Shown here piece after piece: positions 3,448-59,039 of a stretch of DNA of 64,000 nucleotides. How positions within the stretch are numbered: the first letter of the stretch is position 1; every line of letters begins with the position of its first letter. The notes beneath the pieces were generated by a model. The model had not been told where the DNA came from. It saw only the letters and a list, made by a program, of their open reading frames with translations, and ran no database searches. Origin of the DNA: an uncultured Nitrospirota bacterium (GTDB lineage Bacteria > Nitrospirota > Nitrospiria > JACRHA01); assembly GCA_964481895.1 (NCBI GenBank), contig CAYZUL010000003.1, positions 9,294-73,293 on the forward strand. Direction: 5' to 3'. Position numbers and translations under genes: made by a program.

Positions 3448-3702
3448 TTGAAGGCTCATGTGTATGTTACCTTGAAGAGGGGGATCCTGGATCCGGCGGG
3501 AAAGGCCGTTTTGTCCTCTCTGGAATCGCTGGGATACAAGGGTATATCGCAGGTAAGGATCGGGAAGTATATGGAGATAGACATAGAAGGTCGGTCAAAG
3601 GCTGAGGCGGAGAAGGATATAAAGGATATGTGCGAAACACTCCTCGCAAATACTACCATAGAGGACTATTCTTTTGAAATGGATGATAAAAAGGATTCTT
3701 GA
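3448..3702 (+). CDS. purS: phosphoribosylformylglycinamidine synthase subunit PurS
   Basis: 84 aa. PurS fold sequence KAHVYVTLKRGILDPAGKAV. TTG start at 3448 with RBS AGGAGGA at 3434-3440. Confidence 0.85.
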   Translation: MKAHVYVTLKRGILDPAGKAVLSSLESLGYKGISQVRIGKYMEIDIEGRSKAEAEKDIKDMCETLLANTTIEDYSFEMDDKKDS

Positions 3703-4850
3703 TGAGCCTTGAAGGACGACTGGAAGATCTGGGTCTTCCGGATATCTTCCAGATTATCGGTTTGAGTAAGAGGTCAGGGGCTTTGACCATAGTGAGGCAG
3801 GAAGGCACAGGGAGGCTTGTCTTCTGCCTGGGTCAGGTCGTTTATGCCAGCTCTGATAATAAAAGCAGGCTTGGTTATACCCTTGTAAAAAAAGGTCTTA
3901 TTTCCAATAAGGACCTTGAGAATGCCTTGAAAACCCAGAAGTTGAAGGGCGTTAAAAAACCTATAGGCACGATCCTGCTCGATGCCGGTGCGATAGACAG
4001 GAACATACTTGAAAAGGAGATAAGAAACCATGTTGTGGAGGTGGTAAGAGATCTTATGACATGGGAGAGCGGTTCTTTCCACTTTGAGCTTGGCGATCTG
4101 GTAGAGGGAGATGTTGCACTCAAATCTGGTATCAATCCGGAATTTCTCCTCCTTGAAAGCGCAAGGATTACGGATGAAGAAAAGAGAGAAAAGGAGAAGG
4201 CTCATGAGGTCAAGACTGAGACCCGGGTGATCAAGGAGAAAGAGGTGTCTGGAATTACAGCGACTGAACCCGTTACTGCTCAGTCTCAGACTAAACCTTT
4301 ACCGCAGGGGAGGAAGGACCTTGTCCTCCTTACATCAATGATCGCAGAACTCTCTGGACCGTCGACAAGCAGTGAGATCACACTTCTGATCCTCAGGTTT
4401 GCGAGTGAGTTAATGAATAGGGCGGTGCTCTTCCTGGTAAAGAAGGAGTATATTGCGGGACTTGGCCAGTTCGGAATTGTATTCAAGGAGGGATCTGCGG
4501 ATGTCAGGATAAGGGATGTGAAGATCCCGCTTAATGAAGAATCCTTACTCAGGGATGTTATAGAAAAAAAGACTACATTTAAAGGCCAACTTCCTTCTGG
4601 AGGATGGAATGACTATCTTGTTGAACAACTCGAATGTGAAAGACCTATCGAGGTATTCGTATCCCCTCTGATCAGCGACGGAAAGGTAATAGGACTTCTT
4701 TACGGTGACAATTTCCCGAACCGGGAAAGGATCGCTGAGACTGATGGACTTGAGGCCTTTATTAAGGTTTCAGGTGTGGCATTTGGCAAGGTGCTTCTGG
4801 AAAGGAGATTGCAGGAAACGAGGACACCGGAGCCGTCTGCAGGAAGGTAG
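3699..4850 (+). CDS. DUF4388-like N-domain + MshEN-type c-di-GMP-binding motifs + C-terminal GAF-like domain protein
   Basis: 383 aa. N-terminus LEGRLEDLGLPDIFQIIGLSKRSGALTI (DUF4388-like). RLGYTLVKKGLISNKDLENALKTQ matches the 24-aa MshEN motif (RLGxxLhxxGhhxxxxLxxxLxxQ), and a second degenerate copy is PIGTILLDAGAIDRNILEKEIRNH. The C-terminal ~150 aa are homologous to the C-terminus of the 22625-23641 protein (shared ...LYGDN... block). Confidence 0.6.
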   Translation: MMSLEGRLEDLGLPDIFQIIGLSKRSGALTIVRQEGTGRLVFCLGQVVYASSDNKSRLGYTLVKKGLISNKDLENALKTQKLKGVKKPIGTILLDAGAIDRNILEKEIRNHVVEVVRDLMTWESGSFHFELGDLVEGDVALKSGINPEFLLLESARITDEEKREKEKAHEVKTETRVIKEKEVSGITATEPVTAQSQTKPLPQGRKDLVLLTSMIAELSGPSTSSEITLLILRFASELMNRAVLFLVKKEYIAGLGQFGIVFKEGSADVRIRDVKIPLNEESLLRDVIEKKTTFKGQLPSGGWNDYLVEQLECERPIEVFVSPLISDGKVIGLLYGDNFPNRERIAETDGLEAFIKVSGVAFGKVLLERRLQETRTPEPSAGR

Positions 4851-4924
4851 AGTCATGCTTGTTATTGAGTTTCGTTGGTTAGGAGAGGCGAGTTAAGAGC
4901 CAACCCATAACTTAGAAATGAGGG

Positions 4925-5305: not shown

Positions 5306-5314
5306 GGCGAATTC

Positions 5315-11572: not shown

Positions 11573-12516
11573 TGAAAATCATCCATAGCTTTCCGGAAAC
11601 ACGTATAAGCGGCATTCAGCAGGGGCTTGCCTACCCCGTTATTACAATAGGAAACTTTGATGGCGTACACCTGGGCCATCAGGTGATAATGCGGTCAGTG
11701 GTGAAAGAGGCAGAAACAAAGGGTGGTACGGGAATTGTGGTTACATTTGAGCCCCATCCATCCAGGCTGCTTGCACCCAATAGACCTCTTAAGCTTTTAA
11801 CATCTTTTGATGAGAGGATGAGGCTCATAGAGGGGCTTGGGATAGATATGGTAATTTGCGCCAGGTTTGATGAGAAATTTGCACATATGTCTCCCTACGA
11901 GTTTGCTGCAAATATCCTTCATGGAGAGATAGGTGCAAAAGAGATATACGTCGGTGAAGATTTTGCATTCGGCTACAAAAGGAGCGGAAAGATAGATGAT
12001 CTTAAGAAGTACGGGGGGGAATTCGGTTTCAAAGTAGATACGATCCCGCCTGTGATACTGGACGGGGAGAGGGTAAGTTCATCAAGAATCAGGGGGCTTA
12101 TCGGGGACGGAAGGGTAGGGGAGTCTGCAAGGCTTCTTGGGAGATCTTATTCTATAGAGGGTTTGGTTGTTGCAGGAAAAAACAGGGGCAAGGATCTGGG
12201 TTATCCAACGGCAAATGTCAGGCCGCCTGATGAAATGATACCTAAAGATGGTGTCTATGCGGTAAAGGTCACACTTGATGCGGCATCGATGGATGGGGTT
12301 ACTTATATCGGGAATCAGCCTACATTCGGTATTAATGAGAAGATGGTGGAGGTGCATATCTTCAACTTCGATAAGAATCTATATGATAAGAGCATCAGAA
12401 TAACCTTTGTCGAACATATAAGGGATGATGTAACCTTTGAAAACAGGGATCTGCTTATAGGGCAGATTAGGGACGATATCAGGCGTGCAAAGGAATTGCT
12501 CCCTTTTCAGGGATAA
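11572..12516 (+). CDS. ribF: bifunctional riboflavin kinase / FMN adenylyltransferase
   Basis: 314 aa. GNFDGVHLGHQ (FAD synthetase) and a C-terminal riboflavin kinase domain. Confidence 0.9.
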   Translation: MKIIHSFPETRISGIQQGLAYPVITIGNFDGVHLGHQVIMRSVVKEAETKGGTGIVVTFEPHPSRLLAPNRPLKLLTSFDERMRLIEGLGIDMVICARFDEKFAHMSPYEFAANILHGEIGAKEIYVGEDFAFGYKRSGKIDDLKKYGGEFGFKVDTIPPVILDGERVSSSRIRGLIGDGRVGESARLLGRSYSIEGLVVAGKNRGKDLGYPTANVRPPDEMIPKDGVYAVKVTLDAASMDGVTYIGNQPTFGINEKMVEVHIFNFDKNLYDKSIRITFVEHIRDDVTFENRDLLIGQIRDDIRRAKELLPFQG

Positions 12517-18070: not shown

Positions 18071-18881
18071 GATTATACGGAACATAAGGTGGCAGGATAT
18101 ACTGGATATACTCCTTGTTGCCTTTATAATCTACAGGCTGATATTGATTATAAAGGGGACACGGACTTTTCAGATGCTTGCCGGCCTTGCCGTACTCCTG
18201 TTGGTCCTTATTGTATCCAGGTGGATAGAACTACATACTATGGACTGGATCTTTACAAGGCTCTGGTCCCAGATTGTAATCGTACTTATCATACTGTTTC
18301 AGCCGGAGATAAGAAGGGCGCTTGCACAAATGGGGAAGAACCCCTTTAGTAGTATTACGCCGATGGAGGAATTTAAGACCCTTGAGGAGATTGTGAAGGC
18401 CTCTGTCTCTCTTGCAAATAAGAAGATAGGTGGAATTATTGTCCTTGAACGGGAGATAGACCTGAGTGAGATAGTGGAGATGGGGATACAGCTTGACGCA
18501 AAGGTCTCAAAGGAGATCTTAAATGTCATCTTTCTTCCTCAATCGCCGATACATGACGGTGCAGTGATTATAAAAGGGAACCGCATCGTTGCGGCAGGCT
18601 GTTTCCTTCCCTTGAGTCTAAGCCCTGATATAAGCAAGATATTCGGTACGCGTCACAGGGCGGCCATGGGCATAACAGAAGAGACCGATGCAGTGGCAAT
18701 AGCATTATCGGAGGAGATGGGGACGATTTCAGTGATAATCGGCGGGAAGATGACCAGGGAGGTAGATGCGGCCACACTCCGGAGGATTCTCACCAAGATC
18801 TTCATCAAAGAGATGAAAAAAGATGGCGTGCCGATAATTCAAAGATTAAGGGATCTCTTCCCTGAAAGGACTGCAAAATAA
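18054..18881 (+). CDS. cdaA: diadenylate cyclase CdaA (c-di-AMP synthase), membrane-anchored
   Basis: 275 aa. Three N-terminal TM helices, then a DAC domain (DGAVIIKGNRIVAAGCFLPLS...TRHRAAMGITEETDAVAIALSEE). Confidence 0.85.
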   Translation: MNMVVEIIRNIRWQDILDILLVAFIIYRLILIIKGTRTFQMLAGLAVLLLVLIVSRWIELHTMDWIFTRLWSQIVIVLIILFQPEIRRALAQMGKNPFSSITPMEEFKTLEEIVKASVSLANKKIGGIIVLEREIDLSEIVEMGIQLDAKVSKEILNVIFLPQSPIHDGAVIIKGNRIVAAGCFLPLSLSPDISKIFGTRHRAAMGITEETDAVAIALSEEMGTISVIIGGKMTREVDAATLRRILTKIFIKEMKKDGVPIIQRLRDLFPERTAK

Positions 18882-20161: not shown

Positions 20162-21604
20162 ATGTCTTTTGATAATATCAACACTACATCCCTGAAACCA
20201 TTGGTAGAATCAGATCTCTGTTTTAAATGCGATGTCTGTTGCAGGTTTATTGATAAAGAATCCCCGTTGCGGCCGTATTTTTCAAGGGATGAGATATGGA
20301 GGCTGATTAATGCTGGGATCTCTCCTGTGCCATTTGCAAGGCTGGATGGCTGCAAAATAGATCTGATACCTTATGGGGATTTACATATTTGCCCCTTTTT
20401 CGGATCAAGAGAAAACAGATGCACCATATATGACCTAAGACCCCTGGATTGCAAAATATATCCTGTGGCGGCAATGAAATCCCAGGGAGAATCCGGTATC
20501 CTGATCGGCATAGATACAAAATGTCCATATTCTGGTAAGGTGGAAAATGGAGATATTTTTTATTATGCTGATCTTATATCCCAAATGGCAACCAGTGAAG
20601 AGATCTTGGGTATAACAGGTGACTTTCAGGATGATGTAAGGGTTATTACATCTCTGTGGTTGCCTTGGGCAGGCACAGAGGCCTGCCCCTACGAGCTCCC
20701 ATCTTATCTCAAAATACTTAGCATAGAGGATAAACCTATCTTTGACAAATTTCTCTTCGGAACAAGCAGATTATCATCCCATTCATTCATTGTAAATTAT
20801 ATCTGGGGAGACCTCCTTAGCTACTATTGGAAGATAATAGATGGATGCCTCTGCCTCTTTGCAGAATATGACCAAAACATATTTATGCCTATACCTCCGG
20901 TAGGCATTAATCCAAGGATGGCATCTGCTAAGGCATTTGAGATAATGGCTAAGGTCAATAAAAACCCCTCTGTATCACGGATCGAGGATCTTGATTGTAA
21001 GGAATTAGAAGAGATCTTATCGCCTGGATACAGGCATGCATTGAAGGGTTACGAATATATTTACAGGAGGGATGAGCTTGTTTCGCTTAAAGGCAATCCC
21101 TATAAAGGGAAGAGGTCTTCTGTTAATCGCTTCTTGAGCCATTTCAATTATAGCTATGAGACCTTTCGGCCTTCTGATCTTGGTGATTGCCTGTCCCTCT
21201 ATATACGCTGGATGAAGGAGAGATATGAATCAAATCAGGATGATATCTGCAGGCAGATGCTCTATGATTCATATTCCGCGCACAGAAGGGCTATGATAGA
21301 CTGCGATTGCCTTGATCTGATCGGCCGGACCGTTAGGATCAATGGGTCTATAGCAGGATATACCTTTGGCTTCAGGTCAGGCCCCGATATTTTTACAGTC
21401 TTATCCGAGATTGCAGACCGGTCAGCAAAGGGCCTTTCTCAGTTCATCTTCAGGGAATTATGCAAAGGTGTTGAAGGTGTCAGGTTCATAAACACTATGG
21501 ACGACTCAGGGCTTGAGGGTATAAGAAGGACAAAACTCTCCTATCACCCATATAGACTGGAACCTTCTTATATAATTTCCCCTCACCCTTCCCTCTCCCC
21601 TTAG
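20162..21604 (+). CDS. fusion protein: YkgJ/UPF0153-type Cys-cluster (CxxCxxCC) domain + C-terminal ~300-aa domain of uncertain (GNAT/DUF2156-like?) family
   Basis: N-terminus LCFKCDVCCRF...CPFF...CTIYDLRPLDCKIYP (putative Fe-S/Zn-binding YkgJ family). The C-terminal family assignment is tentative. Confidence 0.5.
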   Translation: MSFDNINTTSLKPLVESDLCFKCDVCCRFIDKESPLRPYFSRDEIWRLINAGISPVPFARLDGCKIDLIPYGDLHICPFFGSRENRCTIYDLRPLDCKIYPVAAMKSQGESGILIGIDTKCPYSGKVENGDIFYYADLISQMATSEEILGITGDFQDDVRVITSLWLPWAGTEACPYELPSYLKILSIEDKPIFDKFLFGTSRLSSHSFIVNYIWGDLLSYYWKIIDGCLCLFAEYDQNIFMPIPPVGINPRMASAKAFEIMAKVNKNPSVSRIEDLDCKELEEILSPGYRHALKGYEYIYRRDELVSLKGNPYKGKRSSVNRFLSHFNYSYETFRPSDLGDCLSLYIRWMKERYESNQDDICRQMLYDSYSAHRRAMIDCDCLDLIGRTVRINGSIAGYTFGFRSGPDIFTVLSEIADRSAKGLSQFIFRELCKGVEGVRFINTMDDSGLEGIRRTKLSYHPYRLEPSYIISPHPSLSP

Positions 21605-21640
21605 AGGGGAGAGGAATAAGGAGAGGGGCGTTGTTTTTAC
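21580..21640 (+). terminator. Rho-independent terminator-like hairpin between convergent genes
   Basis: CCTCTCCCC-TTAGA-GGGGAGAGG perfect stem (21592-21614) inside a longer imperfect GC-rich IR, followed by TTGTTTTTA. Confidence 0.65.
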
Positions 21641-22020
21641 TAATCCTCGGCAAGGTGAATAATGATGTCCTTCTCGTTGATGAGCCATATATCCAGATCC
21701 GGGTCTCCATCTATGTTTCCTTCGGCCCTGGCTATAAACTTATTAGGATCTGAGATTGGCTCTATGATAATCTTGTAATATCTTAAGGGTTGCATAGGCG
21801 AGAATCCTATATCAGAGATGCTGCCGGAATAGCGGTCATGGTCTATATAATACATCCTTTCAAGTCTTACAATTTCTTTCAGGGCGATTTGAGCCTCTAT
21901 TCCCTTTGCCCGCTTTAGAAAATATTGATATATAGGGATGGCTATCCCCGTCAAAATAAGGGTGATTAAGAGCACGATTACCAGCTCTATAAGGGTAAAG
22001 CCCTTATCTTTTCTCTTCAT
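21640..22020 (-). CDS. pilE: type IV pilin-like protein (prepilin N-terminal methylation motif)
   Basis: MKRKDKG|FTLIELVIVLLI prepilin leader plus a hydrophobic helix. Start at ATG 22020 (the ORF is open to 22098). Confidence 0.7.
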   Translation of the reverse strand: MKRKDKGFTLIELVIVLLITLILTGIAIPIYQYFLKRAKGIEAQIALKEIVRLERMYYIDHDRYSGSISDIGFSPMQPLRYYKIIIEPISDPNKFIARAEGNIDGDPDLDIWLINEKDIIIHLAED

Positions 22021-22615
22021 TTTGATCTGATAACTCAAACTTATCCAGTATATTCCTGATCTCCTTATTCTTTTCGATAATCCCCTCCATTCTTTCAATC
22101 AACTCCTGCCTGCTGTTTAAACCTTCTAAACCATGTAAGTCCTTCAGTATCCCCGGGAGGTCTGCCCCCACATCCCTCTCCATCCTCTTTATATTCATCA
22201 TTGATTTGTCTATGTTTTCCAATAAGTGATTTAAAAGGTTGGCAAGCTCCTTCAGATCATCTCCTTTCCTGAGTCTGATCCTCACTGACAGGTCGCCGCC
22301 TATCACATCTTTAGCTGTCTTTTCAAACCTGTATATTGGGCCTGCAAGTTTATGGGTGACATAGACGCTTATAACGGCTAAAACAGAGATACTTATGGCA
22401 ATCGCAGGCCAGAGCCTTTCCCCTAAGATTATATACTGCATGGCTGCCTGTGCCTTTTCCTCAATGGGTGATCCGGAAATAAGGGTTATAGCCGGAGGTA
22501 TAAAGAGCGTCAGGACTATGAGGAATGTATATGCGATAAGCAGGATTGCGGTGAGGAATGCGTATCTCTTCTGGATAGGATGTATAAAAAACCTTCTACG
22601 CCTGAATGGACTCAA
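22004..22615 (-). CDS. membrane protein with two TM helices and a HAMP domain; no output domain
   Basis: 203 aa. HAMP-like LAGPIYRFEKTAKDVIGGDLSVRIRLRKGDDLKELANLLNHL, then a C-terminal coiled-coil. Confidence 0.6.
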   Translation of the reverse strand: MSPFRRRRFFIHPIQKRYAFLTAILLIAYTFLIVLTLFIPPAITLISGSPIEEKAQAAMQYIILGERLWPAIAISISVLAVISVYVTHKLAGPIYRFEKTAKDVIGGDLSVRIRLRKGDDLKELANLLNHLLENIDKSMMNIKRMERDVGADLPGILKDLHGLEGLNSRQELIERMEGIIEKNKEIRNILDKFELSDQNEEKR

Positions 22616-22624
22616 AGATGCCCC

Positions 22625-23641
22625 CTAAATTGCCATTAATTTTTTTCTTAACAATAAAATTTCCAGGGCAATAGACGCTGTCCATGCCAGCTTCTTAATG
22701 AAATCGATCTCGGAGATCCCCTTTCCAGACTTAATATTGTCCCCATATAAGATTGCCACGACCTGATCTTTTATTGTAAGGGGTATTGCAATTACCTCCT
22801 TTGGAAAGCGATCGTCAATCCTTTTCAGGAGGATCTGATTTCCCTGGGTAGCGATGAGCGGACCACTATAAGGTTCCTTGCTTTCTATAACATCAAGGAA
22901 GATCGACGGCTGGTCAAGCCTGATCTCAAGGCCTTCCAGCGCCTCCTTCTCAGTGTGAGGCGGATGTGCCCTCCAGCCTGATACAACCCCCTTCTTAACT
23001 ATAAACATTATAGCCCTGTCAAGGACAAGGCCTATATTCTTCATCAAGATCCCTATGATCTCCTCCCTCTCCTTTGTTTGAAGGAAATCCTCCTTTGCTG
23101 CCTTGAGATATGAATTAAGCTCTTCAGGGGTGGGTCTCTTCTTTTCAGTTACCTCCTCCTCTGTTAACCTCTTCCTTTCCTCATCAAGGATCGATATATA
23201 TCGCAATTTTCTGCTCACCTGATAATATTTCTCCAGTGCAAATTGTATCCTGGCCTCTGCGGCTATATATGTCTTAATAGAGCAGTTTGTCAAAAAGCCA
23301 ATCTCGTTTATAGCCTCAAAATCTGTCGGGTCCAGCATGGCAACATGCAGGGTATTCTTCTCTTTTCGCAGCGGGATTATATTAAATTTTCTGGCCAGAT
23401 CACGCGTAATGAGCCTTAATGCATCAGGATCTATCTGGTCAAAATCCTTGGGTCTTGCAAAGGGTATATTCAATCTTCTGCTTAAGAAGCCAGCAAGCCC
23501 CTCTTCGCTTAGATATCCAAGCTCTATAAGGTTTGTGCCGAGACGGCCGCCTACTGTAAGCTGTCTCTCAAGGACGTGGACAAGCTCTGCCTTTGTTATC
23601 AGGCCATCCTTAACAAGAAGATCCCCAAGTTTTTCAGTCAA
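22625..23641 (-). CDS. standalone MshEN (T2SSE_N-type c-di-GMP-binding) domain protein with C-terminal GAF-like domain
   Basis: KLGDLLVKDGLITKAELVHVLERQ and RLGTNLIELGYLSEEGLAGFLSRRL are tandem 24-aa MshEN motifs. The C-terminus is homologous to that of the 3699-4850 protein (AILYGDN). Confidence 0.65.
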   Translation of the reverse strand: MTEKLGDLLVKDGLITKAELVHVLERQLTVGGRLGTNLIELGYLSEEGLAGFLSRRLNIPFARPKDFDQIDPDALRLITRDLARKFNIIPLRKEKNTLHVAMLDPTDFEAINEIGFLTNCSIKTYIAAEARIQFALEKYYQVSRKLRYISILDEERKRLTEEEVTEKKRPTPEELNSYLKAAKEDFLQTKEREEIIGILMKNIGLVLDRAIMFIVKKGVVSGWRAHPPHTEKEALEGLEIRLDQPSIFLDVIESKEPYSGPLIATQGNQILLKRIDDRFPKEVIAIPLTIKDQVVAILYGDNIKSGKGISEIDFIKKLAWTASIALEILLLRKKLMAI

Positions 23642-23943
23642 TCCCCATCACCAGATTTATGCTTGCATTATGATCTGACCATTCGCCATGAATTTACTGT
23701 TAGGGCGCTACAATCTTGTGCCCTTGATTTGGGCACAGCTATAATAGATTGATATGTTTCCTCTTATCTCAGTTTCATTGTTAGTTTCGCCCCCCTCGCA
23801 TCGAATTCCTAAAAACATCCTCTATGGAGCCATGATTTTGCCATTATACCTCATCTCTGTTTCAGGCACAAAAATTTTATACCATACGACGGATGTTTTT
23901 TTCTAATTGTAGCAGTTATTTACCCATCTCGTTTATCCCTTGA

Positions 23944-24699
23944 CTAACTCTGAATATTAAAGATTTGCACAGCCTCCCCACCTGCCCCATCAGTTACAGA
24001 GACTACCACATAGACCTTACCCTTAAACGATGAGAAGATTTCCCATCTTATTAGTCCTGTTTCATGATCTATGGTCATTCCGTCAGGCGCTGATTTAAGG
24101 GAATATAAGAGCCTGTCTCTATCTGGATCTTCGGCCACGATCTGATAAGTAAAGCCGCTTTCATATTTGTAATCTCGAATAGACGAGGTTATTACCGGTT
24201 TCGCATTAAAGATATAGGCAAAGACCGTTATGGGCACGCCCTTTTCTTTTCCATCATCGGGGGTAACCGTAAGAGATATCTTATCACCCCGTTTAAGCTC
24301 AGTAGCTAAGGTATCTGAAGGCTCATTTAAGGGCCTTCCATCTATTGCCCATTGGTATGAAAGAGCTATATTATCACCGTCCCTGTTCTGGGTTAACACC
24401 TCGGCCCTTATCCTGTCGCCTTTTACAGGAGAAGATGGGGATAGTTTTATTGAGATGATTTCAGGACGGGCATTACTCTTCGGTTTCTCTACAGGCTGTT
24501 CTGGATCTATCACCGATATTTTATTTTGTTTAGTATCAATATCTATTTTCCTAGCCTCCCAGCTATAAGCAATAATACTGAGACCTATTAGGCTGCAAAG
24601 GGACAGCAAGAGGATCTTCCTTTGAAGATGCCGGCGAGGATCAGCAGCGTCAACATTCTTTTTCATCCTTTCTTGAATCTTATGTGCTAATAACATCAT
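23944..24699 (-). CDS. membrane-anchored protein with cadherin-like/Ig-like domain
   Basis: 251 aa. N-terminal TM helix. LLYSLKSAPDGMTIDHETGLIRW is typical of cadherin-like/putative Ig domains. Its start overlaps the pilY1-like stop by 4 nt (ATGA). Confidence 0.55.
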   Translation of the reverse strand: MMLLAHKIQERMKKNVDAADPRRHLQRKILLLSLCSLIGLSIIAYSWEARKIDIDTKQNKISVIDPEQPVEKPKSNARPEIISIKLSPSSPVKGDRIRAEVLTQNRDGDNIALSYQWAIDGRPLNEPSDTLATELKRGDKISLTVTPDDGKEKGVPITVFAYIFNAKPVITSSIRDYKYESGFTYQIVAEDPDRDRLLYSLKSAPDGMTIDHETGLIRWEIFSSFKGKVYVVVSVTDGAGGEAVQIFNIQS

Positions 24700-27600
24700 T
24701 TTTTAAGCCAGTGGACTATATTGGATATGATAGAATTTGCTGGTTGATTTTTAGCCTCTAATATAGCCCCTGATCCTATCTGAATCTTCTTCTCTAAGAT
24801 TTCCTGTCCCTCCTTTGGAGGTGGGATGATTATTGCCTCACCTGTTGGCGGGGCGCCAGGGCCTAACCTTACCCCTTTTTCAACAGTTACAGTGCCTGTG
24901 GTTATCCCTCCAGTTGCTTCCGGAGCAAGGATTGCCACATTTACTGGCGCAACCCCTGTAGTATAACCTAATGAAAAGAGAAAAGATTCACCTCCAGCAG
25001 AGCAGATATCTGCACTCGGCTTATATGTCAGGAAGTCTACAAGTCCGCCAACGGCAAGGGGCCTGGATATAACACGCTCAAGGGAAGAGAGCGTAATAAA
25101 CCAGCCATTCGTAGGTACTAATGCTGCCCCAGAAGTGGGAGAGATGGAGGTAACAACGGTCTTATTGCTAAAACTGTTGGTTGACGAATCATAGAGGCAT
25201 ATCTGGGTCGTCCCTGTAACTGTCCCAGTTGTAGATACACCTGTTCTGTCAGACAGACCAGTAGTTGTAAGTGGATAAGTTATACCTGAGGGCTTATCCA
25301 TAAGACCAAGGAAGATCTGGGTTGAGTTATCAACCTTATCCAGATCGCTATTAAACTTCCCTGAGCCTGCATAGACCCATATATTCCCATTGGCATCCTT
25401 GGCCGCATCAGGAGATGCGGTCAAGGGATAGTTATCTGAGAAGAGGTACTTGACACTTGGTGTCCATGGGGTGCTCAGATCCTGATTAGGTATGTCTATA
25501 GCCACGAGTTTCCCCTTCCAGCTTATTTTATTATACGCTGTTCCAAAGTAGATCTTCTCTGCTACATAATCCTTATCGGCATCTATTGCGAGGATATCGC
25601 TTACAATATGATTGTCGTCTGCGATTGTATCAGCATTGTCAAGGCTTATCTTCTTTGCAAGACTACCTGTTTTTAGATCGAGCATATAGATGTAACCTGT
25701 GCTAGTCCTGGCTATATCAGTAGCGCTCTTCGGGAGCTGTTTCGAGCCAGAGCCAAAGACCACATACCAGTTGCCATTCTGGGTATTATTTCCTGTCCTT
25801 ATGATTGAAGGATAGGTAGTGGCGTGACCGAGATCGGGATCAGAAAACTCCCAAAGGGAGACAGGGTTCTCAGGGTCTGTAATATCGATAGCGAAGTAGG
25901 ATGAGAACCCGACATTTGCAGGGGTCCCTGTTGGAGGTCCTGCTGGGTTTGCATCTGCCCCGGCACATGCGCCGCCAAACCTCATACCCCCGATCAGGAT
26001 GGTCTTCCAGCTACTCGATGTCCTGGTATCTGTAGGATTACCCTGAATACTGGCATCTACTAGCCTTACAGAGAGGTCGTTGTAATATATATGACAGTAG
26101 CTGGGGTCTGCAAGATATTTTAGATAGGGGAAGGCATTAAATGGGATATAGCCCCATACCTCCTCGCCAAGTTTGTCATTTTGAGTATCTGATGTACTGA
26201 AGAGATTCTTAAACAGGGCCTTAACACCCGAGGCCAAGGCTCCCAGGCTGTCATCCTTGTCCTTTAGATACCCGACCCTGAAGGCATGGAGTATCCCATC
26301 ATTTGCCCCAACAAAGGCTATGGCAGATCGCTGCTTATAGCTGCTGCTTGTAACATATTGATAATAGGTGCTGTCGGCATAGTCTATATGATAGGTATTT
26401 AGTGGCGTATTGGCAAAGACCTTTGGGGTGGAGTTTATGATGTCCCCAAGCTTCCACACCCTTAGACTCGTGCTTACAGTAACACGCCTGTCTCTATATG
26501 CTGAACTCACCGTGCTGCTGCAGGGATTATCGCCTATGATGCCTGTCTCAAGGCATTCACCCCTTATATACCTAACAATATTTTCAGCAGAATATGTAAC
26601 ATCCGGATTCAGGGCAGCGCTTAAGGCAGGATTGGTAGTTACATTCCCTACCGTGAAATCATTGGTCAGGAAGGTATTAGTAGTTGAGCTTCCTCTTTTT
26701 ACATCTTTTGATGTAAATATCCTTCGTGCAGAAGGGGCCATCAATGCAAGCTTCTTCCCTCCCTCCCAGAGGTAACTCACGTCTGAAAATGCCTTTATCT
26801 GAGGCGTTGAACATTGTGTCAGTGAGGAAGGAGTTCCATCATCACCACCATCTACATTTGTCGTAAATAGGGCACCTTTTGTTTCATTGTTTGCAGTATC
26901 AAAATATAATTTTAATACCTTGTCTTGTCCAAGATTGAGCCCAAAGTCATTGGTCGTATCCTCCCTCAGGTTGTCCTTCTGGTCTATCCAGAGATTCTGC
27001 AGATATCCGGTCCAGGTAACCTCCCTTACCCCTTCCTGCCTTGTAGGGAGAAAGTATGCCTGTACCATAGAACCTATCCCCCTCGAAGAGGTTGTAAGAA
27101 CAGAGACAGCCGTACCTGAGGCGGCACGCTTTAGGATATCTGCTATGGCATTGGTGATGCTTGCCTCAAGTTCATAGCCGTCGTCCCCTTCATAATATGT
27201 CAAAGGGAGATCAGAGGAATTAATAACACCATCTCCATTTGAATCCCGCAGATACTCTTTTAGATCCGGCCCTGGCTTCAAGTCACCATTTAGGTCATTA
27301 AACCCGCCGTTTATCGCAGCATCTTTTAATAGCTGAGATCCTTTTCCAAACATAAATACAGGGTATAGGATTATATTCTGGTTTCCTGTTAGGTCCGATC
27401 TGTTATCTACTGTCCTTGCCCACAAGGCCACATCGTCCAGATAGTCGGTCGCGTAAGAACTGCCGGAGGTCCCAGCCGGATCTTTGCTATCTGCGTCATA
27501 GTCACGTAAGCTTGTAGGAATGTTTGTATCCTGTGTCGCCTCTCCATCGGTCAACATCAGGATGAAGGACTTGGCGCAACGGACATATTGGTCAGACAGA

Positions 27601-29063
27601 CCCGATCCTGTCAGCTTGGAATACTGGTAATAATAGGGATCGTATAACGGACCAGTCTGGTAATCTGCGGGGGCATTTGAATAAGCTGGTGATTCTTGCC
27701 TGAAATATCTTACCGCCTCATAAAAGGTCTCAGCCAGGGGTGTCCATGTGGATGGGGACATATTCGAGATATGGGTAATCATATCAGTAGTAGAACCAAA
27801 ATCTACATAATTTTCTATATGCCCACCATCATATTTTCCGCCAACAGATCCCGATTCAATGCCGTTTCCCCTATTATAAAAGGACAAACCAAACCTGACG
27901 CCGCTGCTAAGTCTGTCCATGATACCCTCAGCCTTTTGCATCCCTTGATCTATAATGGTATTGTAAGGCCCGCCAGAGGGGGTGCTTGACGAGATAATAA
28001 GATAGACCTGTGTGGCGCGGGGAAAGACAGAGGCATAACTAGTATAGGCCTTAACTCCAAACCCCTGCAGACTTCCTATTCCAGAGGATTTAATATCATT
28101 CCAATCCCAGGCCACCCCTGTAGATGGATTGGTAGTCCAGCTGAAGTTATATGTAGTATAAGCATTTGAAATGTTTGAGAAGTTTGATGCGTAATCAGTG
28201 CCACTTATACGGATTACCCCTTGTATCCTCCTGGTCACGCTGCTGCTTGTGGCCTTTTTTGCAACCACCCTAACAGTCACACTTGTGATGGTGCCTAGTT
28301 TTGAACCTGTGTAATCGTAATCTAATATAACAGGGCTGACGGTATTGTTATTCTGGATATAGGTTGTGTCTCCATCTGATGTTGCCTCATTAACTGCGTC
28401 CCAAGCACTTGCTGCCCCTGTTACACTCCATCCAGCAGGGACACTTACATTAGCGTTTGGATAAGCATAAAAAGTCTGTGACCCAGGGTTAACCGGGCTT
28501 ATACTCAACTGGTCACCTGACATACTGTAACGGTAATCCCCTACAAATGGATAGATGATCCCTGGCACAGAGGAGTTATCAAGGTTCTTTTGAAAATCCC
28601 AGGACAAAGATGAATTTTCACCATAGAGCTTTACTGTGATAGCGCCCATTGGAGACCTCGGGGATGCCTTGCCGCCTATAAGGAGTTTTTTGGCGGCATC
28701 AATCCTGCGCGTGGTGGCCCAGTTCAGGAGGTTCCCGCTTGCAATAGGATTAGCCGCAGTCCCGCTTGTCATAGCCAAGGCGGTCACCTCCCACCGGCCA
28801 CTATTACTATAGATATAGTTTTTAGAAGGGTCAAAATAACCATAGTATGATCCACTTACAAACTGGGTCGGATCGTAAGATCCTGCATATGCCTGATCAT
28901 TCATACTCCCTGAGTTATCAAGAATAACGAGGACATTGGGTGGGATACTGCTGCTCACAAGGGGTGGAGTAGAACAATAGTCACCCATTGCGCCCCTTAC
29001 CGATGAAGGGACAAGCAGGAGAAAAAGAATGACAATCTTCAATATAATCTCTTGGTGTTTCAT
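24696..29063 (-). CDS. pilY1: PilY1-like type IV pilus tip adhesin (vWA domain + C-terminal PilY1 beta-propeller)
   Basis: ~1455 aa. Signal peptide, MIDAS VLVILDNSGSM, and a C-terminal region with PilY1-type propeller blades. Its position after pilX matches the Pseudomonas fimU-pilVWXY1 operon. Start at ATG 29063 with RBS AGAGGTGA. Confidence 0.75.
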   Translation of the reverse strand: MKHQEIILKIVILFLLLVPSSVRGAMGDYCSTPPLVSSSIPPNVLVILDNSGSMNDQAYAGSYDPTQFVSGSYYGYFDPSKNYIYSNSGRWEVTALAMTSGTAANPIASGNLLNWATTRRIDAAKKLLIGGKASPRSPMGAITVKLYGENSSLSWDFQKNLDNSSVPGIIYPFVGDYRYSMSGDQLSISPVNPGSQTFYAYPNANVSVPAGWSVTGAASAWDAVNEATSDGDTTYIQNNNTVSPVILDYDYTGSKLGTITSVTVRVVAKKATSSSVTRRIQGVIRISGTDYASNFSNISNAYTTYNFSWTTNPSTGVAWDWNDIKSSGIGSLQGFGVKAYTSYASVFPRATQVYLIISSSTPSGGPYNTIIDQGMQKAEGIMDRLSSGVRFGLSFYNRGNGIESGSVGGKYDGGHIENYVDFGSTTDMITHISNMSPSTWTPLAETFYEAVRYFRQESPAYSNAPADYQTGPLYDPYYYQYSKLTGSGLSDQYVRCAKSFILMLTDGEATQDTNIPTSLRDYDADSKDPAGTSGSSYATDYLDDVALWARTVDNRSDLTGNQNIILYPVFMFGKGSQLLKDAAINGGFNDLNGDLKPGPDLKEYLRDSNGDGVINSSDLPLTYYEGDDGYELEASITNAIADILKRAASGTAVSVLTTSSRGIGSMVQAYFLPTRQEGVREVTWTGYLQNLWIDQKDNLREDTTNDFGLNLGQDKVLKLYFDTANNETKGALFTTNVDGGDDGTPSSLTQCSTPQIKAFSDVSYLWEGGKKLALMAPSARRIFTSKDVKRGSSTTNTFLTNDFTVGNVTTNPALSAALNPDVTYSAENIVRYIRGECLETGIIGDNPCSSTVSSAYRDRRVTVSTSLRVWKLGDIINSTPKVFANTPLNTYHIDYADSTYYQYVTSSSYKQRSAIAFVGANDGILHAFRVGYLKDKDDSLGALASGVKALFKNLFSTSDTQNDKLGEEVWGYIPFNAFPYLKYLADPSYCHIYYNDLSVRLVDASIQGNPTDTRTSSSWKTILIGGMRFGGACAGADANPAGPPTGTPANVGFSSYFAIDITDPENPVSLWEFSDPDLGHATTYPSIIRTGNNTQNGNWYVVFGSGSKQLPKSATDIARTSTGYIYMLDLKTGSLAKKISLDNADTIADDNHIVSDILAIDADKDYVAEKIYFGTAYNKISWKGKLVAIDIPNQDLSTPWTPSVKYLFSDNYPLTASPDAAKDANGNIWVYAGSGKFNSDLDKVDNSTQIFLGLMDKPSGITYPLTTTGLSDRTGVSTTGTVTGTTQICLYDSSTNSFSNKTVVTSISPTSGAALVPTNGWFITLSSLERVISRPLAVGGLVDFLTYKPSADICSAGGESFLFSLGYTTGVAPVNVAILAPEATGGITTGTVTVEKGVRLGPGAPPTGEAIIIPPPKEGQEILEKKIQIGSGAILEAKNQPANSIISNIVHWLKK

Positions 29064-29102
29064 ATATTCACCTCTCTTTTTACCTTTGTTTTCCATCATA
29101 TA

Positions 29103-29454: not shown

Positions 29455-29937
29455 TTACCCGGTATACCTGTAGAGGGCGGAGTTCTCTGCCCTTGCATTA
29501 TTAGGGCCTGTAACCATTGTGGTGATCCTATAAAATACAGCAGTGCTTGGCACCCCCGCAGACCTTGCAAATTCAAGCCTTCCACCGGGTAGGTCTCTCG
29601 TATATAACCTCTCAAACGTAACAGTAGCAACATAGTTTCCTACGGCGCCTGGCAGGGTAATGGTGCCGCTACAGGGGGAGTTTTGATTTAAAACCCCATT
29701 AGAAATACAAATAGCCGATAATCTAGCAGTAACTGGTTCGCCAAGCATGGTCAGGTTTATGGTGTCTTTTACTATCTCTATGGCCCCATCCGCTGCCTCT
29801 TCGGCAGTTGCATATCTCTTGGCCGCCCCTGACATAGTCGTGGACTGTTCTACGAGATATAAAACCCCGGTCACCATGATAAATATAACTGCGCTTATTA
29901 TTAAGGCTATAATAAGGGCAGCGCCCCTCTCATTCAT
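29455..29937 (-). CDS. pilX: PilX-like minor pilin
   Basis: MNERGAALIIALIISAVIFIM matches the PilX N-terminal domain. Start at ATG 29937 (the ORF is open to 29979). Confidence 0.65.
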   Translation of the reverse strand: MNERGAALIIALIISAVIFIMVTGVLYLVEQSTTMSGAAKRYATAEEAADGAIEIVKDTINLTMLGEPVTARLSAICISNGVLNQNSPCSGTITLPGAVGNYVATVTFERLYTRDLPGGRLEFARSAGVPSTAVFYRITTMVTGPNNARAENSALYRYTG

Positions 29938-31013
29938 CTCATATTCCTTGGAGTTATATTTAATGATATCACTCTCCATCTGAACCTCCTTTGTTCTGCA
30001 GTAAGGGGTACATCCCTCCCGATAGTAAGGCTAGTATCCCCAACCCGGATACTCGCCAGTGGGTTTGTATAATCCGGGTCTTGTTTGCCTAATTGCACAA
30101 GTAGATATACCCTCACCTGTTTTAACCGTTTATTCAGAGTCTTTGCGTCATATCCTCCTGCGAGTACACCGCCATTATCCCAGAAATCTATTGCCCCATT
30201 CTCATCTGTATCAAGGCCGAAGGCGACCTGGAGGTCCAAAACACAGTTGAGAAGGGGTTCACCACCAGCAGGCGCAACTGTTGTCCTGCTCTCGGCCCTT
30301 AAAAGATTCTGGGTCCCCGTGGCACAGGTAGATGGAAGGGTAGAAGGAACTGTATCGCCCAGGGAATATCTGACGGCATAGAAGGGCTGAGTAGCCTGCG
30401 GATCTGCAGCATCCTGAAGTCCATACAGCAGGTTTCCTAAGGCCGGGTTTGCGAAAGCAATACTACCCACCCGTGTATTGATATTACAACATGCCCCTGT
30501 AAATACATACAACCATTGCCACACCCCTGCCACCTGCTGTGCAAGGAGCTTCTTTGTGCTAGGCTCTATCACTACGACCCTGTCGCCAATACCCAGATCC
30601 TCCCTTGCATCACCCCATGTCCTGAAGGTGGGGGTTGTATTTGCCATATATGTCCATTCCTGTGCCTGCCTTGATCCCATTCCAAGTGCCGTCCCCATAA
30701 GGGTTATGGTATCTGGAGCGACACTACTATTAGTTGCACTAACAGCCGTGGGGGAGAAATCCTGATCACCATCACCATCGTAATCATAGTCTTCTGCAAG
30801 GCCATAACCTGCCATGGTGATCTCCCTTTCCATAATACCCTTTGCTATCCCTAGCTCCATATCGGCCTCGGCTATCTTATATTCTCTGCCCATATGTTTC
30901 ACCTGGGTGGTATAGGCAACATAGATACCTGAAAGGATTATGAAGGATATGGCCAGGGACACGAGGATTTCTATCAGAGTGATTCCCCTAATATCTGTTA
31001 TATTAGATCTCAT
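29934..31013 (-). CDS. pilW: PilW-like minor pilin
   Basis: 359 aa. Prepilin motif RGITLIEILVSLAI. Confidence 0.7.
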   Translation of the reverse strand: MRSNITDIRGITLIEILVSLAISFIILSGIYVAYTTQVKHMGREYKIAEADMELGIAKGIMEREITMAGYGLAEDYDYDGDGDQDFSPTAVSATNSSVAPDTITLMGTALGMGSRQAQEWTYMANTTPTFRTWGDAREDLGIGDRVVVIEPSTKKLLAQQVAGVWQWLYVFTGACCNINTRVGSIAFANPALGNLLYGLQDAADPQATQPFYAVRYSLGDTVPSTLPSTCATGTQNLLRAESRTTVAPAGGEPLLNCVLDLQVAFGLDTDENGAIDFWDNGGVLAGGYDAKTLNKRLKQVRVYLLVQLGKQDPDYTNPLASIRVGDTSLTIGRDVPLTAEQRRFRWRVISLNITPRNMR

Positions 31014-31014
31014 C

Positions 31015-31539
31015 TTATGTTTTCCTGTGTTTATATATTACCGTGTTGTTTGAATACAGCTGTCCGCGATAGGTGAATAGGACAGCAATCTGTATTTCCC
31101 TTAGGTCATTTGTTAGCGTTGTTACATTCCAAGTAACATTATAGGTCTGTGTAAACCCCCTTATGGTCTGAATGGGATTTGGGTATTGTCGAAAATCAGG
31201 TGTTAGTGCTGCGTTGGTACTGTCATAAGGTGATAGTCCACTAAGGCCATTAACAATATTATCGAACGGCTGTGCAAGGATTATCTCTGCTACCTGAGTA
31301 GTGATTCTTATGCCTGAGTTCCTGATTTCATTTCGGCTGTTTATATCCATGGACTTGGTGGTAAGGCTTAAAAACCCGAGGATAGAAATTAAAAGGATAA
31401 CATCAGCTATCATCATCTCCAGGAGGGAAAAACCACTATCATTGGAAAGGAGATAGAGGGTAGTATGCTTGATACCCCCGTCTCCTTTACCCTCTATTCT
31501 TTGCCTACTATATTTATGATATGCTGCAATTAACCCCAT
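31015..31539 (-). CDS. pilV: PilV-like minor pilin (start uncertain)
   Basis: GFSLLEMMIADVILLISILG prepilin-type cleavage/methylation motif. No good alternative start lies closer to the motif, so the leader length is uncertain. Confidence 0.6.
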   Translation of the reverse strand: MGLIAAYHKYSRQRIEGKGDGGIKHTTLYLLSNDSGFSLLEMMIADVILLISILGFLSLTTKSMDINSRNEIRNSGIRITTQVAEIILAQPFDNIVNGLSGLSPYDSTNAALTPDFRQYPNPIQTIRGFTQTYNVTWNVTTLTNDLREIQIAVLFTYRGQLYSNNTVIYKHRKT

Positions 31540-32053
31540 CCCATGTCCCCTCTCTTATCCTGACAGGGTTTACCATAACACACCTTACCTCGGCAACCCC
31601 TGCCAGCCTCAAGACATATGTCTTGCCTATTTGACCCCAATTAGTATCCCTTGCCATCCCTCTTTTATCATATATCAGGACATCATTTGTCGGATCTGCT
31701 GCGTTACCTATTGTTACAGTTAAGAATGCTGGGAGGTTCGTAGACCGCACTCCCGCCTCCTCTCCGGTATTATCGTAGACAAAATCACTACTGATGAACT
31801 CAAAGGTTGTATAAGAGTTGTTTGACGCAAACCTTATACCAAACCCTCTACTATTTGCCGCCGAGCCTCTGGTCATTGCATCCTGCCTGATCCTTTGAAG
31901 ATCACCGAGAAGCCCCCTTGAGGCAGCGGTTAACCGATGTCTTTGAATAAAGCCAGTACCCATGGTGGCCATTGCCACAGCTATCCCTATTATAGCCACT
32001 ACAACCATAAGCTCAGTTAGTGAATAACCCTTCTTATTAGTTATGTATCGCAT
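31514..32053 (-). CDS. fimU: FimT/FimU (GspH)-like minor pilin
   Basis: MRYITNKKG|YSLTELMVVVAIIGIAVAMA. Start at ATG 32053 gives a 9-aa leader (the ORF is open to the TTG at 32083). Confidence 0.7.
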   Translation of the reverse strand: MRYITNKKGYSLTELMVVVAIIGIAVAMATMGTGFIQRHRLTAASRGLLGDLQRIRQDAMTRGSAANSRGFGIRFASNNSYTTFEFISSDFVYDNTGEEAGVRSTNLPAFLTVTIGNAADPTNDVLIYDKRGMARDTNWGQIGKTYVLRLAGVAEVRCVMVNPVRIREGTWDGVNCSIS

Positions 32054-32321
32054 ACTTGCCTTCTTTTGCAATAAAGATGCCAATTATTTTATAATAGAAT
32101 CCTCATAGTTTATAATGAATTATAGTGTAGAAAAGAAGAAATACAAGTAATTAAAGTATGAAATATAAGGGTAGCACTATGTAATTGATTACATAGTTTA
32201 AGGGGTAGGTTAGTCCCAGTAAAAAGGGTTTACTTTTCCTTTTGGGGATAGTATAATTTAGATAACATTATTATTAAATTATAAATAATTCTGCAGATTT
32301 ATATCATCATCGGAGGGATTT

Positions 32322-58973: not shown

Positions 58974-59039
58974 TTATTTCCTATGTTTTATTGGAATACT
59001 CCTTGTAGATATCTCTTAAAAATTCATGACCCCTTGAGC

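Follow-up and report, generated by a model that had tools for sequence, protein, structure and literature searches.

To our knowledge, only three c-di-GMP receptor modules are widespread, MshEN being one of them, and almost all of the functional knowledge of MshEN that we are aware of comes from ATPase fusions. In the compilation by Wang et al. (2016; Suppl. Table 4, PMC5013675), P. aeruginosa PA3740 consists of MshEN_N and a diverged N1, carries no ATPase, and is linked to swarming, while M. xanthus FrgA (MXAN_1130) has the order MshEN-UNK-HEAT and is linked to aggregation and swarming. The same table contains GAF-MshEN-T2SSE, MshEN-REC, and MshEN-xN1; MshEN-GAF is absent from it, and our literature searches found no MshEN-GAF architecture. 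PATAN is an output domain shown experimentally in cyanobacteria to bind the N-terminal region of PilB as well as PilC (10.1101/2021.06.11.447907). In the FimX-PilZ-PilB system of Xanthomonas and Pseudomonas, pilus assembly is controlled by a c-di-GMP-binding protein that is distinct from PilB and targets its N-domain, and the PilZ-PilB interaction is supported (PMC11580455).

In the present study, we analyzed a protein with an MshEN head and a GAF-like domain, which is encoded in a 64-kb window (the whole stretch of DNA under analysis). We consider the chances to be about even that this protein is a soluble, ATPase-less putative c-di-GMP receptor with an accessory regulatory role at the type IV pilus machine. 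Its location among type IV pilus genes points to a c-di-GMP route to pilus control that has not been described. The gene and the parts of its product are as follows.

22625..23641, minus strand: MshEN-GAF-like protein (the target), 338 aa, TTG start (ORF and public-contig gene call)
23474..23632, minus strand: MshEN_N with two 24-residue c-di-GMP motifs (residues 4-27 and 33-56) and the 5-residue spacer LTVGG (NF053729, 5HTL alignment, 36 homologues)
23213..23470, minus strand: MshEN_C/T2SSE_N1-like alpha/beta subdomain, residues 58-143 (Pfam PF05157, E 6.6e-20)
23129..23212, minus strand: charged low-confidence linker, residues 144-171 (pLDDT 52-59 at residues 141-170)
22628..23128, minus strand: divergent GAF-fold domain, residues 172-338, with conserved R209, K216, G260, and P287 and an LYGDN signature (including Y299, D301, and N302)

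An independent gene call on the public contig gave the identical 338-aa product. The initial annotation described tandem MshEN 24-mers without an ATPase domain, and both motifs were recovered (K4-Q27 and R33-R56). The NCBIfam model NF053729 (53-residue c-di-GMP motif) matched residues 4-55 with 55.7 bits (cutoff 38), and Pfam MshEN (PF05157) matched residues 58-143 with 71.3 bits (cutoff 23.1). The T2SSE ATPase domain (PF00437) had no match among the Pfam and NCBIfam profiles, and the protein ends at residue 338. The PilB model TIGR02538 covered only profile positions 1-168 of 564 (72.7 bits versus a cutoff of 675). PATAN/DUF4388 (PF14332) and HEAT repeats gave no profile match in the target.

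The motifs aligned without gaps to V. cholerae MshE (5HTL). In motif 1, R9, L10, G11, D12, L25, L29, and Q32 of MshE correspond to K4, L5, G6, D7, L20, L24, and Q27 of the target; in motif 2, R38, L39, G40, L54, L58, and Q61 correspond to R33, L34, G35, L49, L53, and R56. Eleven of these 13 key residues are identical, and the exceptions are the conservative change of R9 to K and the change of Q61 to R. The target deviates from the strict motif at three positions only: by these two changes, at the first and last positions, and by Y43 at position 11 of motif 2, where the strict motif has L/V/I/F and MshE has F48. All three are permitted by the relaxed MshEN motif of Wang et al. (2016; PMC5013675). 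Therefore, the arrangement, initially described as canonical, is only nearly so, given the K at R9 and the R at Q61, the latter of which is not a conserved position in the family.

The AF2 model of the full-length protein had a pLDDT of 85.8 and a pTM of 0.51; because of this pTM, the domain arrangement cannot be read from the model. Its secondary structure placed helices at residues 5-11, 17-30, 34-40, and 46-57 of MshEN_N, followed in MshEN_C by short helices (64-68, 72-77, 80-86), strands (88-94, 97-102, 121-126), and two further helices (108-118, 129-140). This is the layout of a four-helix MshEN_N and an alpha/beta MshEN_C, a fold assignment based on secondary structure and the sequence profile. 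Positions 1-145 of the family profile matched the N-domains of PilB, PilF, and MshE in the PDB, with PilB N-domains as the best matches (5zfr, 3e-41; PilF, 7e-52); among solved structures, the PilB N-domains of Geobacter and Myxococcus are the nearest. Over 140 aa, the N-terminus of the target was 38-39% identical to a Nitrospirota PilB from the same kind of locus. These comparisons identify residues 1-145 as a complete paralogue of the PilB N-terminal regulatory domain, comprising the four-helix MshEN_N with its predicted c-di-GMP site and the alpha/beta N1.

We found 765 homologues of the target. The family consists of conserved full-length proteins of 320-365 aa with their own C-terminal domain and is frequent in Nitrospirota; the length of the linker between MshEN and the GAF-like domain differs among homologues. 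The MshEN motifs are conserved in orthologues. G6, L24, Q27, G35, and L53 were invariant in 36 full-length homologues (38-93% identity), R33 was present in 35 of the 36, and the 5-residue spacer was kept. The position equivalent to R9 was K in 22 of the 36, that equivalent to Q61 varied (K/Y/F/R), and position 14 (I19 of MshE) was K or R in 15 of the 36 and L in the target. Thus, nearly all of the residues predicted to contact c-di-GMP are kept across the MshEN-GAF family.

The C-terminal ~150 aa had been proposed to be homologous to a second protein in the window, which adjoins chemotaxis genes.

3699..4850, plus strand: PATAN/DUF4388 protein with an MshEN-like helical insert (residues 57-105) and a GAF-like domain (~226-371) (profiles, BLASTP)
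4925-5305, plus strand: cheY (Pfam)
5315-7330, plus strand: cheA-cheW fusion (Pfam)

The pairwise alignment bore this out. BLASTP aligned residues 194-335 of the target with residues 226-371 of the second protein (29% identity, 53% positives, E 7e-15), and the alignment includes the block VIAIPLTIKDQVVAILYGDN / VFVSPLISDGKVIGLLYGDN. A canonical GAF protein from the same window (36210-36998) was used as a control. We regard the homology as specific because this control gave only E 0.004 over 54 residues. The target scored below threshold with the Pfam GAF profiles (PF01590, PF13185, and PF13492; GAF_3, 16.9 bits, cutoff 27; GAF_2, 13.0 bits, cutoff 28.6), GAF_2 reached E<=0.001 in only 7 of the 109 domain-family representatives, and the C-terminal profile gave only weak GAF matches among PDB sequences (E 0.002-0.3). 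The domain has the GAF fold, in which helices flank an antiparallel sheet of six strands and further helices stand at the N- and C-terminus. We concluded that the shared C-terminal domain, the last ~165 residues of the target, is a divergent and specialized GAF fold. Its family comprises about 3,500 clusters at 50% identity and is almost confined to positions behind MshEN, PATAN/DUF4388, or receiver modules (PATAN in 31 and REC in 21 of the 109 representatives). The signature of R, K, G, P, and YGDN is strongly conserved and common to the MshEN-GAF and PATAN families.

The paralogue at 3699-4850 matched DUF4388 (PF14332) with 100 bits (cutoff 25), and the order purS-X-cheY-cheA, in which X is the PATAN paralogue, is conserved. 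In its insert, one 24-mer fits the strict motif, the spacer has 7 residues, and the second motif is degenerate; the score against NF053729 was 37.8 bits, just under the cutoff of 38. Therefore, its status as a c-di-GMP receptor is weaker than that of the target. The genes of both putative receptors initially proposed are conserved.

Pfam and NCBIfam matches also supported the position of the target in a minor-pilin locus, with PilV/GspH-like pilins, PilW, PilX, and PilY1.

21640..22020, minus strand: PilA-like prepilin, 126 aa (MKRKDKG/FTLIELV; N_methyl motif)
22004..22615, minus strand: membrane protein, 203 aa, with two predicted TM helices, HAMP, and a coiled coil (weak Pfam HAMP and NCBIfam matches)
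23642..23943, minus strand: non-coding gap of 302 nt upstream of the target (sequence read)
23944..24699, minus strand: Ig-domain protein (He_PIG/Big_9), 251 aa (Pfam)
24696..29099, minus strand: PilY1-like protein, 1467 aa (Pfam T4P_PilY1, E 5.9e-13)
29455..32083, minus strand: minor pilin genes (Pfam and NCBIfam), namely the next four
29455-29979, minus strand: PilX
29934-31013, minus strand: PilW
31015-31539, minus strand: PilV-like
31514-32083, minus strand: GspH/FimT-like

The gene for the 203-aa HAMP protein starts 10 nt past the stop of the target. Its TM helices were judged by eye from hydrophobic segments, and its NCBIfam matches were to the TM2-HAMP part of histidine kinases. This 2TM-HAMP gene is kept directly downstream in related loci (L001, L002, L005-L010), as is the Ig-domain gene upstream in three of them (L001, L002, L008). 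The PilA-like prepilin had PilA_Myxo (N-terminal part) as its best NCBIfam match (E 8.8e-18, below cutoff); the 126-aa gene was also called on the public contig and is kept downstream in related loci. The 302-nt gap, in which a hairpin (GTGCCC-N7-GGGCAC) was seen by eye, may divide a second transcription unit from pilY1-Ig. A promoter and terminator scan of 21400-24800 gave no sites above those of shuffled sequence, and a candidate promoter picked by eye (TTGTGC-17-TATAAT) failed in it. In an Rfam gathering scan of the whole window, neither a c-di-GMP riboswitch nor any other known RNA was detected in the gap. The sole Rfam match in the window was a DUF3800-V RNA at 58247-58341. Against the reading as an accessory regulator, genes for GGDEF, EAL, or HD-GYP proteins were not detected within the 64-kb window; in its favor, diguanylate cyclase genes are present near homologues.

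Synteny was counted over 80 species-representative loci, and at least 61 of them had a type IV pilus neighborhood. In 51 loci, the gene directly follows pilR of a pilB-pilT-pilC-pilS-pilR cluster, and there are three more such loci besides; carriers of the pilR-linked copy include a cultured Thermodesulfovibrio. Ten loci have the minor-pilin/PilY1 setting of the target, in which the gene lies after the minor-pilin/PilY1 operon and before the 2TM-HAMP gene, followed by the PilA-like pilin gene. Thus, most Nitrospirota carriers have the gene within a type IV pilus cluster, a far stronger association than could have been known initially. However, eight more distant homologues sit behind tatA/B-tatC, and pilus genes were not detected there. 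They exclude a universal linkage, and the association with pili is therefore specific to a clade.

The PilB N-domain is a docking site for regulators, and the chains of PDB entries 7LKM and 7LKO, which we take to be the Xanthomonas PilB N-domain-PilZ complex, were among the sequence matches of the family profile. We infer that the tandem motif binds c-di-GMP in the manner of MshE and PilB. By analogy, the protein could then act as a decoy or adaptor that occupies or bridges the sites of the PilB N-domain, on the platform (PilM/PilC) or on PilB. With the long helices at its ends, the GAF-like domain may serve in dimerization and/or in a second input or partner contact. The partner in the sub-clade of the target may be the 2TM-HAMP membrane protein encoded immediately downstream. 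The net effect would be that c-di-GMP tunes pilus assembly, or its priming by the minor pilins and PilY1 encoded alongside and by the PilA-like pilin. A broader proposal is offered only tentatively, as we lean toward doubting it. It holds that the GAF variant is an unrecognized signaling module reserved for regulators of pili and chemosensing (in fusions with MshEN, PATAN, or REC, and probably corresponding to the UNK region of FrgA), and that in Nitrospirota the MshEN-GAF proteins serve as decoy or adaptor forms of the PilB N-domain, through which c-di-GMP gates the assembly of pili or the deployment of the PilY1/minor-pilin tip complex.

The GAF-like domain may alternatively be a common effector, to which MshEN feeds c-di-GMP in the target and PATAN or REC feeds chemosensory signals in the paralogue, with the same downstream target. 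Among the 109 representatives, the domain is always C-terminal to recognized input modules (MshEN, REC), REC-GAF-like proteins would otherwise have no output, and both families share the strongly conserved surface signature (R, K, G, P, and YGDN). However, GAF folds are typically sensors or dimerizers, and no common target is encoded near both genes. Moreover, PATAN, which stands before the GAF-like domain of the paralogue, has itself been shown to be an output domain (10.1101/2021.06.11.447907). We consider a common effector to be rather unlikely. A role at the level of transcription, as a c-di-GMP-responsive anti-activator or co-sensor of PilS-PilR/sigma-54 pilin control, appears less probable still. 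The position directly after pilS-pilR in the larger clade fits such a role equally well, and this counts against an accessory regulator of the machine. However, the target contains no detected DNA-binding domain, no pilS or pilR was found near it in the window, and the N-domain resembles the machine-docking part of PilB rather than any known EBP regulator.

It is also conceivable that the motif no longer binds the nucleotide, as in XpsE, and that the protein has a constitutive role in the structure or assembly of the pilus machine. XpsE and P. aeruginosa PilB are examples of degenerate MshEN domains that do not bind (PMC5013675), and position Q61 varies in the family of the target. Against this, the NF053729 score is well above its cutoff, and the disabling substitutions of XpsE (G11V, I19R, L29R, R38G, G40L, L54H, L58C) are absent from the target, which has G6, L14, L24, R33, G35, L49, and L53. 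These positions are mostly kept in the family, apart from the K or R at position 14 noted above. Among the positions of binding loss in XpsE, only Q61 (V in XpsE) differs in the target (R56). A loss of binding is thus quite improbable in our judgment. The resemblance of the N-terminus to PilB would also fit a remnant of a truncated pilB; this explanation is ruled out for practical purposes by the 765 homologues of conserved full length with their own C-terminal domain and by the intact pilB genes that co-occur in the same loci.

An accessory, c-di-GMP-responsive regulator of the pilus machine remains our preferred reading of the target. Nitrospirota include nitrite oxidizers, manganese oxidizers, and sulfate reducers, and we know of no genetic model in this phylum. 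If the above reasoning holds, an ATPase-less MshEN protein of pilus operons would offer a simple experimental handle on the path from c-di-GMP to the pilus in Nitrospirota. Recognition of the GAF variant would also give a fold to the about 3,500 clusters labeled hypothetical or DUF4388, and would link three poorly understood classes of regulators, namely FrgA, PATAN proteins, and stand-alone MshEN proteins. The GAF assignment of the shared domain, its large family and restricted fusion partners, the spread of MshEN-GAF in Nitrospirota with its conserved motif residues, the pilus-cluster synteny, and the tatC setting of distant relatives are new.

Similar to MshE (5HTL) and the PilB/PilF ATPases, the target has two 24-residue motifs with a 5-residue spacer, an N1 subdomain, and the company of pilus genes. 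In contrast, it has a GAF-fold domain in place of the T2SSE ATPase, K for R9, and R at Q61. Canonical GAF domains (Lcd1, 5W10; PtsP, 3TRC; Geobacter MCP, 3OOV) are 12-19% identical to the target domain, which differs from them in scoring below the Pfam thresholds, in its own conserved signature, and in its restricted fusion partners. PA3740, implicated in surface motility, is likewise a stand-alone ATPase-less MshEN protein. However, the target has a canonical N1 and a 165-residue GAF-like domain, whereas the listed domains of PA3740 include no further one.

FrgA differs from the target in its HEAT repeats. Myxococcota MshEN-GAF-like-HEAT proteins (P0255 and 57 relatives) carry the GAF-like domain, with an LYGD motif, between MshEN and HEAT (P0255 versus the domain profile, E 6e-30; HEAT_2 present). 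Since these proteins share the architecture of FrgA, its UNK region is probably the GAF-like domain. The 70 N-terminal residues of FrgA given in the supplement had P0281 as their best match (41% identity); FrgA by name was absent from the matches of the search seeded with P0255. The window paralogue resembles the PatA-type PATAN regulators of cyanobacterial phototaxis (PixE, PixG, LsiR) in its PATAN domain and its place in a che cluster. The cyanobacterial proteins have a C-terminal receiver where the Nitrospirota paralogue has the GAF-like domain, and the target lacks PATAN. The closest functional analogue of the mechanism proposed for the target is FimX-PilZ-PilB, the receptor domains of which (degenerate EAL/GGDEF and PilZ) are unrelated to MshEN. 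If the broader proposal above is correct, the MshEN-GAF proteins would represent a third independently evolved solution, beside c-di-GMP binding by PilB/MshE and the FimX-PilZ relay.

The MshEN-GAF protein is the 338-residue product of a TTG-start ORF, and an independent gene call on a public contig has this product unchanged, with the two downstream genes also the same. The genes of the window considered first are as follows.

22625-23641 (-), MshEN-GAF protein
22004-22615 (-), 2TM-HAMP-coiled-coil protein, resembling a histidine kinase's N-terminal half and lacking the kinase core
3699-4850 (+), PATAN/DUF4388 protein (100 bits), the paralogue through the C-terminal domain
36210-36998 (-), canonical GAF protein (Pfam GAF, E 5e-19), membrane-anchored and lacking an output domain, which served as a control
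18054-18881 (+), cdaA (c-di-AMP cyclase)

Residues 4-55 of the MshEN-GAF protein match NCBIfam NF053729, a 53-residue c-di-GMP motif model (55.7 bits; cutoff 38), and residues 58-143 match Pfam MshEN PF05157 (71.3 bits; cutoff 23.1). Direct reading gave KLGDLLVKDGLITKAELVHVLERQ for motif 1 and RLGTNLIELGYLSEEGLAGFLSRR for motif 2, separated by LTVGG. The initial annotation had proposed a tandem MshEN protein without an ATPase, and this was borne out: profile searches found no ATPase domain, and the PilB model TIGR02538 matches by its first 168 positions only. The protein is not a PilB/GspE ATPase. Over 140 residues, its MshEN part shares 38-39% identity with the N-terminus of a PilB encoded at one of the pilus loci, which makes it a paralogue of the regulatory head of PilB itself.

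The alignment with Vibrio cholerae MshE (PDB 5HTL) contains no gaps, with residue n corresponding to MshE n+5. The c-di-GMP contacts of MshE identified by Wang et al. 2016 (PMC5013675) correspond in motif 1 to R9→K4, L10→L5, G11→G6, D12→D7, L25→L20, L29→L24, and Q32→Q27, and in motif 2 to R38→R33, L39→L34, G40→G35, L54→L49, L58→L53, and Q61→R56. The arrangement is thus canonical at most contacts, but not at K4 and R56. With the exception of the Q61 position, no XpsE-disabling substitution is present. By thresholds, motif, and predicted fold, this is an MshEN family member predicted to bind c-di-GMP.

A word-indexed search returned 765 homologues; the full-length ones (320-365 aa) were almost all from Nitrospirota MAGs, and every one was annotated as hypothetical. 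The motifs are conserved in orthologues. Across 36 aligned sequences, G6, L24, Q27, G35, and L53 never vary; R33 is kept in 35, as is K or R at position 4, and the Q61-equivalent position varies (K, Y, F, R). A 5-residue spacer (residues 28-32, within the two-motif segment at 23474-23632 (-)) is kept in all 36 and is strongly conserved as V[IT][FM]GG, with GG invariant, whereas the corresponding spacer of MshE has been described as non-conserved.

Positions 1-145 of a profile built from these 36 full-length homologues match the solved N-terminal domains of PilB, PilF, and MshE (for example, PilF 6f8l, 7e-52; Geobacter PilB 5zfr, 3e-41; MshE 5htl, 1e-21); the C-terminal half of this full-length profile had no PDB match. 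The AlphaFold2 model from the same alignment was confident (pLDDT 85.8). In it, MshEN_N is helical and the N1 subdomain alpha/beta, residues ~145-170 form a charged linker of low confidence, and the C-terminus is a further alpha/beta domain. Since the pTM was 0.51, the model does not define the relative placement of the domains. We concluded that the architecture is a complete MshEN, a linker, and a divergent GAF, the last being a GAF by fold and not by Pfam thresholds.

The C-terminal similarity to the paralogue, also proposed in the initial annotation, held on pairwise alignment (BLASTP; residues 194-335 against 226-371, 29% identity, E 7e-15). With the canonical GAF control, the alignment covered 54 residues at only E 0.004, which indicates that the relationship is specific rather than generic. 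R209, K216, G260, P287, and an LYGDN motif are kept in this GAF-like domain. Searched alone with an exhaustive HMM search, it retrieved representatives of 3,495 clusters (E<=1e-10). A Pfam scan of the best 109 representatives of at least 300 aa detected MshEN in 69, DUF4388/PATAN in 31, a receiver (REC) in 21, any Pfam GAF model (GAF_2) in seven, and HEAT repeats in one. Therefore, the domain is a distinct GAF subfamily with few partner types.

The paralogue carries one strict MshEN 24-mer (RLGYTLVKKGLISNKDLENALKTQ) in an alpha-helical insert (residues 57-105); a spacer of 7 residues separates it from a second motif, which is degenerate and has a terminal H. It scored 37.8 bits with NF053729, under the cutoff of 38, and the strict first motif occurs in 81 of 119 of its homologues. 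Judging from these motifs, the "helical insertion" known from PATAN domains may act as a nucleotide site of the MshEN_N type. Nitrospiria, Ca. Manganitrophus noduliformans among them, keep the gene order purS, PATAN-GAF-like, cheY, cheA, (MerR-like), cheW, MCP (window 3448-7330; loci L086, L087, and L088). L088 has a REC-GGDEF gene within the che cluster (11132-12061). The che cluster of the window is shorter, with a PAS-only protein (7441-8103) after cheA and the next genes on the opposite strand.

Upstream of the MshEN-GAF gene are four pilin-like genes (GspH/FimT-like, PilV-like, PilW, and PilX), a 1467-aa PilY1, and an Ig-domain protein, the last separated from it by 302 nt. The 2TM-HAMP gene (203 aa, two predicted TM helices) lies 10 nt downstream, followed by a 126-aa prepilin best matching the N-terminal part of Myxococcus-type PilA. 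Other Nitrospirota have the same order, with homologues at 48-50% identity. A perfect inverted repeat, GTGCCC-N7-GGGCAC, without a following T-run, lies ~75-90 nt 5' of the start (~23715-23733 (-)); it might serve as an operator or form a hairpin in the 5' UTR. None of the ORFs scanned across the 64-kb window encoded GGDEF, EAL, or HD-GYP; GGDEF genes occur near homologues in L001 (16840-19434) and L004 (14306-15394). Elsewhere in the window, a DUF3800-V RNA (Rfam, 71.4 bits; 58247-58341 (+)) directly adjoins a DUF3800 gene (58341-58973). Around it, ~10 kb (54000-64000) of lower GC (0.40-0.44) carry genes for a PLD/SNF2 helicase, an Eco57I-type methylase, and a RelA_SpoT-domain protein of 968 aa; the region resembles a defence or mobile island.

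One genome per species was scanned; of the resulting 80 loci, nearly all belong to Nitrospirota (Thermodesulfovibrionales, Nitrospiria, Ca. Manganitrophaceae, and Ca. Sulfobium), with contexts assigned by BLASTP against reference pilus proteins. In 51, pilR is directly upstream, at the end of pilB-pilT-pilC-pilS-pilR; three more have this order with a slightly larger gap. Only a few bases at most separate the start codon from the pilR stop in the pilR-linked clade. Ten are minor-pilin/PilY1 loci as in the window, eight follow tatA/B-tatC, six have other contexts, and two were too short for classification. One MAG has two copies (L020 and L066). The 2TM-HAMP gene directly follows in the minor-pilin-linked clade (L001, L002, and L005-L010) and went undetected in L012, L060, L063, L067, and L068, which are more divergent. 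The tat-linked homologues (L069, L070, L072, L074, and L076-L079; 30-33% identical, from MAGs outside Nitrospirota) begin at the end of tatC or overlap it, and no pilus genes were detected near these eight loci. In L003/L031 (contig_11683, long-read MAG), pilB, pilT, pilC, and pilS are each broken into several ORFs, probably by assembly frameshifts and not as pseudogenes; the MshEN-GAF gene behind pilR is intact. The tie to type IV pilus operons is strong and clade-specific.

The protein thus joins an intact-looking putative c-di-GMP site on a PilB N-domain paralogue to a GAF-fold domain, and the placement of its gene in pilus operons is conserved. MshEN binds c-di-GMP through exactly the residues mapped here (PMC5013675), PilZ interacts with PilB (PMC11580455), and PATAN proteins dock on the PilB N-terminal region (10.1101/2021.06.11.447907). 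From its residues, the protein probably binds c-di-GMP through the tandem motif, and a role in pilus regulation is somewhat favored; for the two combined, a c-di-GMP receptor regulating the pilus machine, we consider the chances even. It would act post-translationally at the motor or platform. That it does so as a decoy or adaptor in contacts of the PilB N-domain, proposed by analogy, is tentative at best. The GAF-like domain may mediate dimerization, receive a second input, or contact a partner; in the minor-pilin-linked clade, a candidate for that partner is the HAMP membrane protein conserved with it.

While its observations were confirmed, the initial annotation also regarded the common domain as a shared effector, and its interpretation stands only in part; we find the shared-effector reading doubtful. 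A function in transcription together with PilS-PilR would suit the position behind pilR, but not kinship with the PilB head or the locus in the window, which has no pilS or pilR gene nearby, and appears unlikely. A nucleotide-blind structural component would accommodate R56 and the variable Q61 position; the conserved contacts make it very improbable. We favor the c-di-GMP receptor over these readings.

Supplementary Table 4 of Wang et al. 2016 (PMC5013675) includes, among others, GAF-MshEN-T2SSE, MshEN-REC, MshEN-xN1 (PA3740), MshEN-UNK-HEAT (FrgA), and REC-MshEN_N-UNK (Bd2402). MshEN with a C-terminal GAF is absent from that table and was not found described in full-text literature searches. 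FrgA-architecture proteins of Myxococcota (the MshEN-GAF-like-HEAT protein P0255 and relatives) share the GAF-like domain; therefore, the "UNK" of FrgA is probably this domain. The Nitrospirota protein is a predicted MshEN receptor whose GAF-type partner domain is specific to the family and was previously undescribed.
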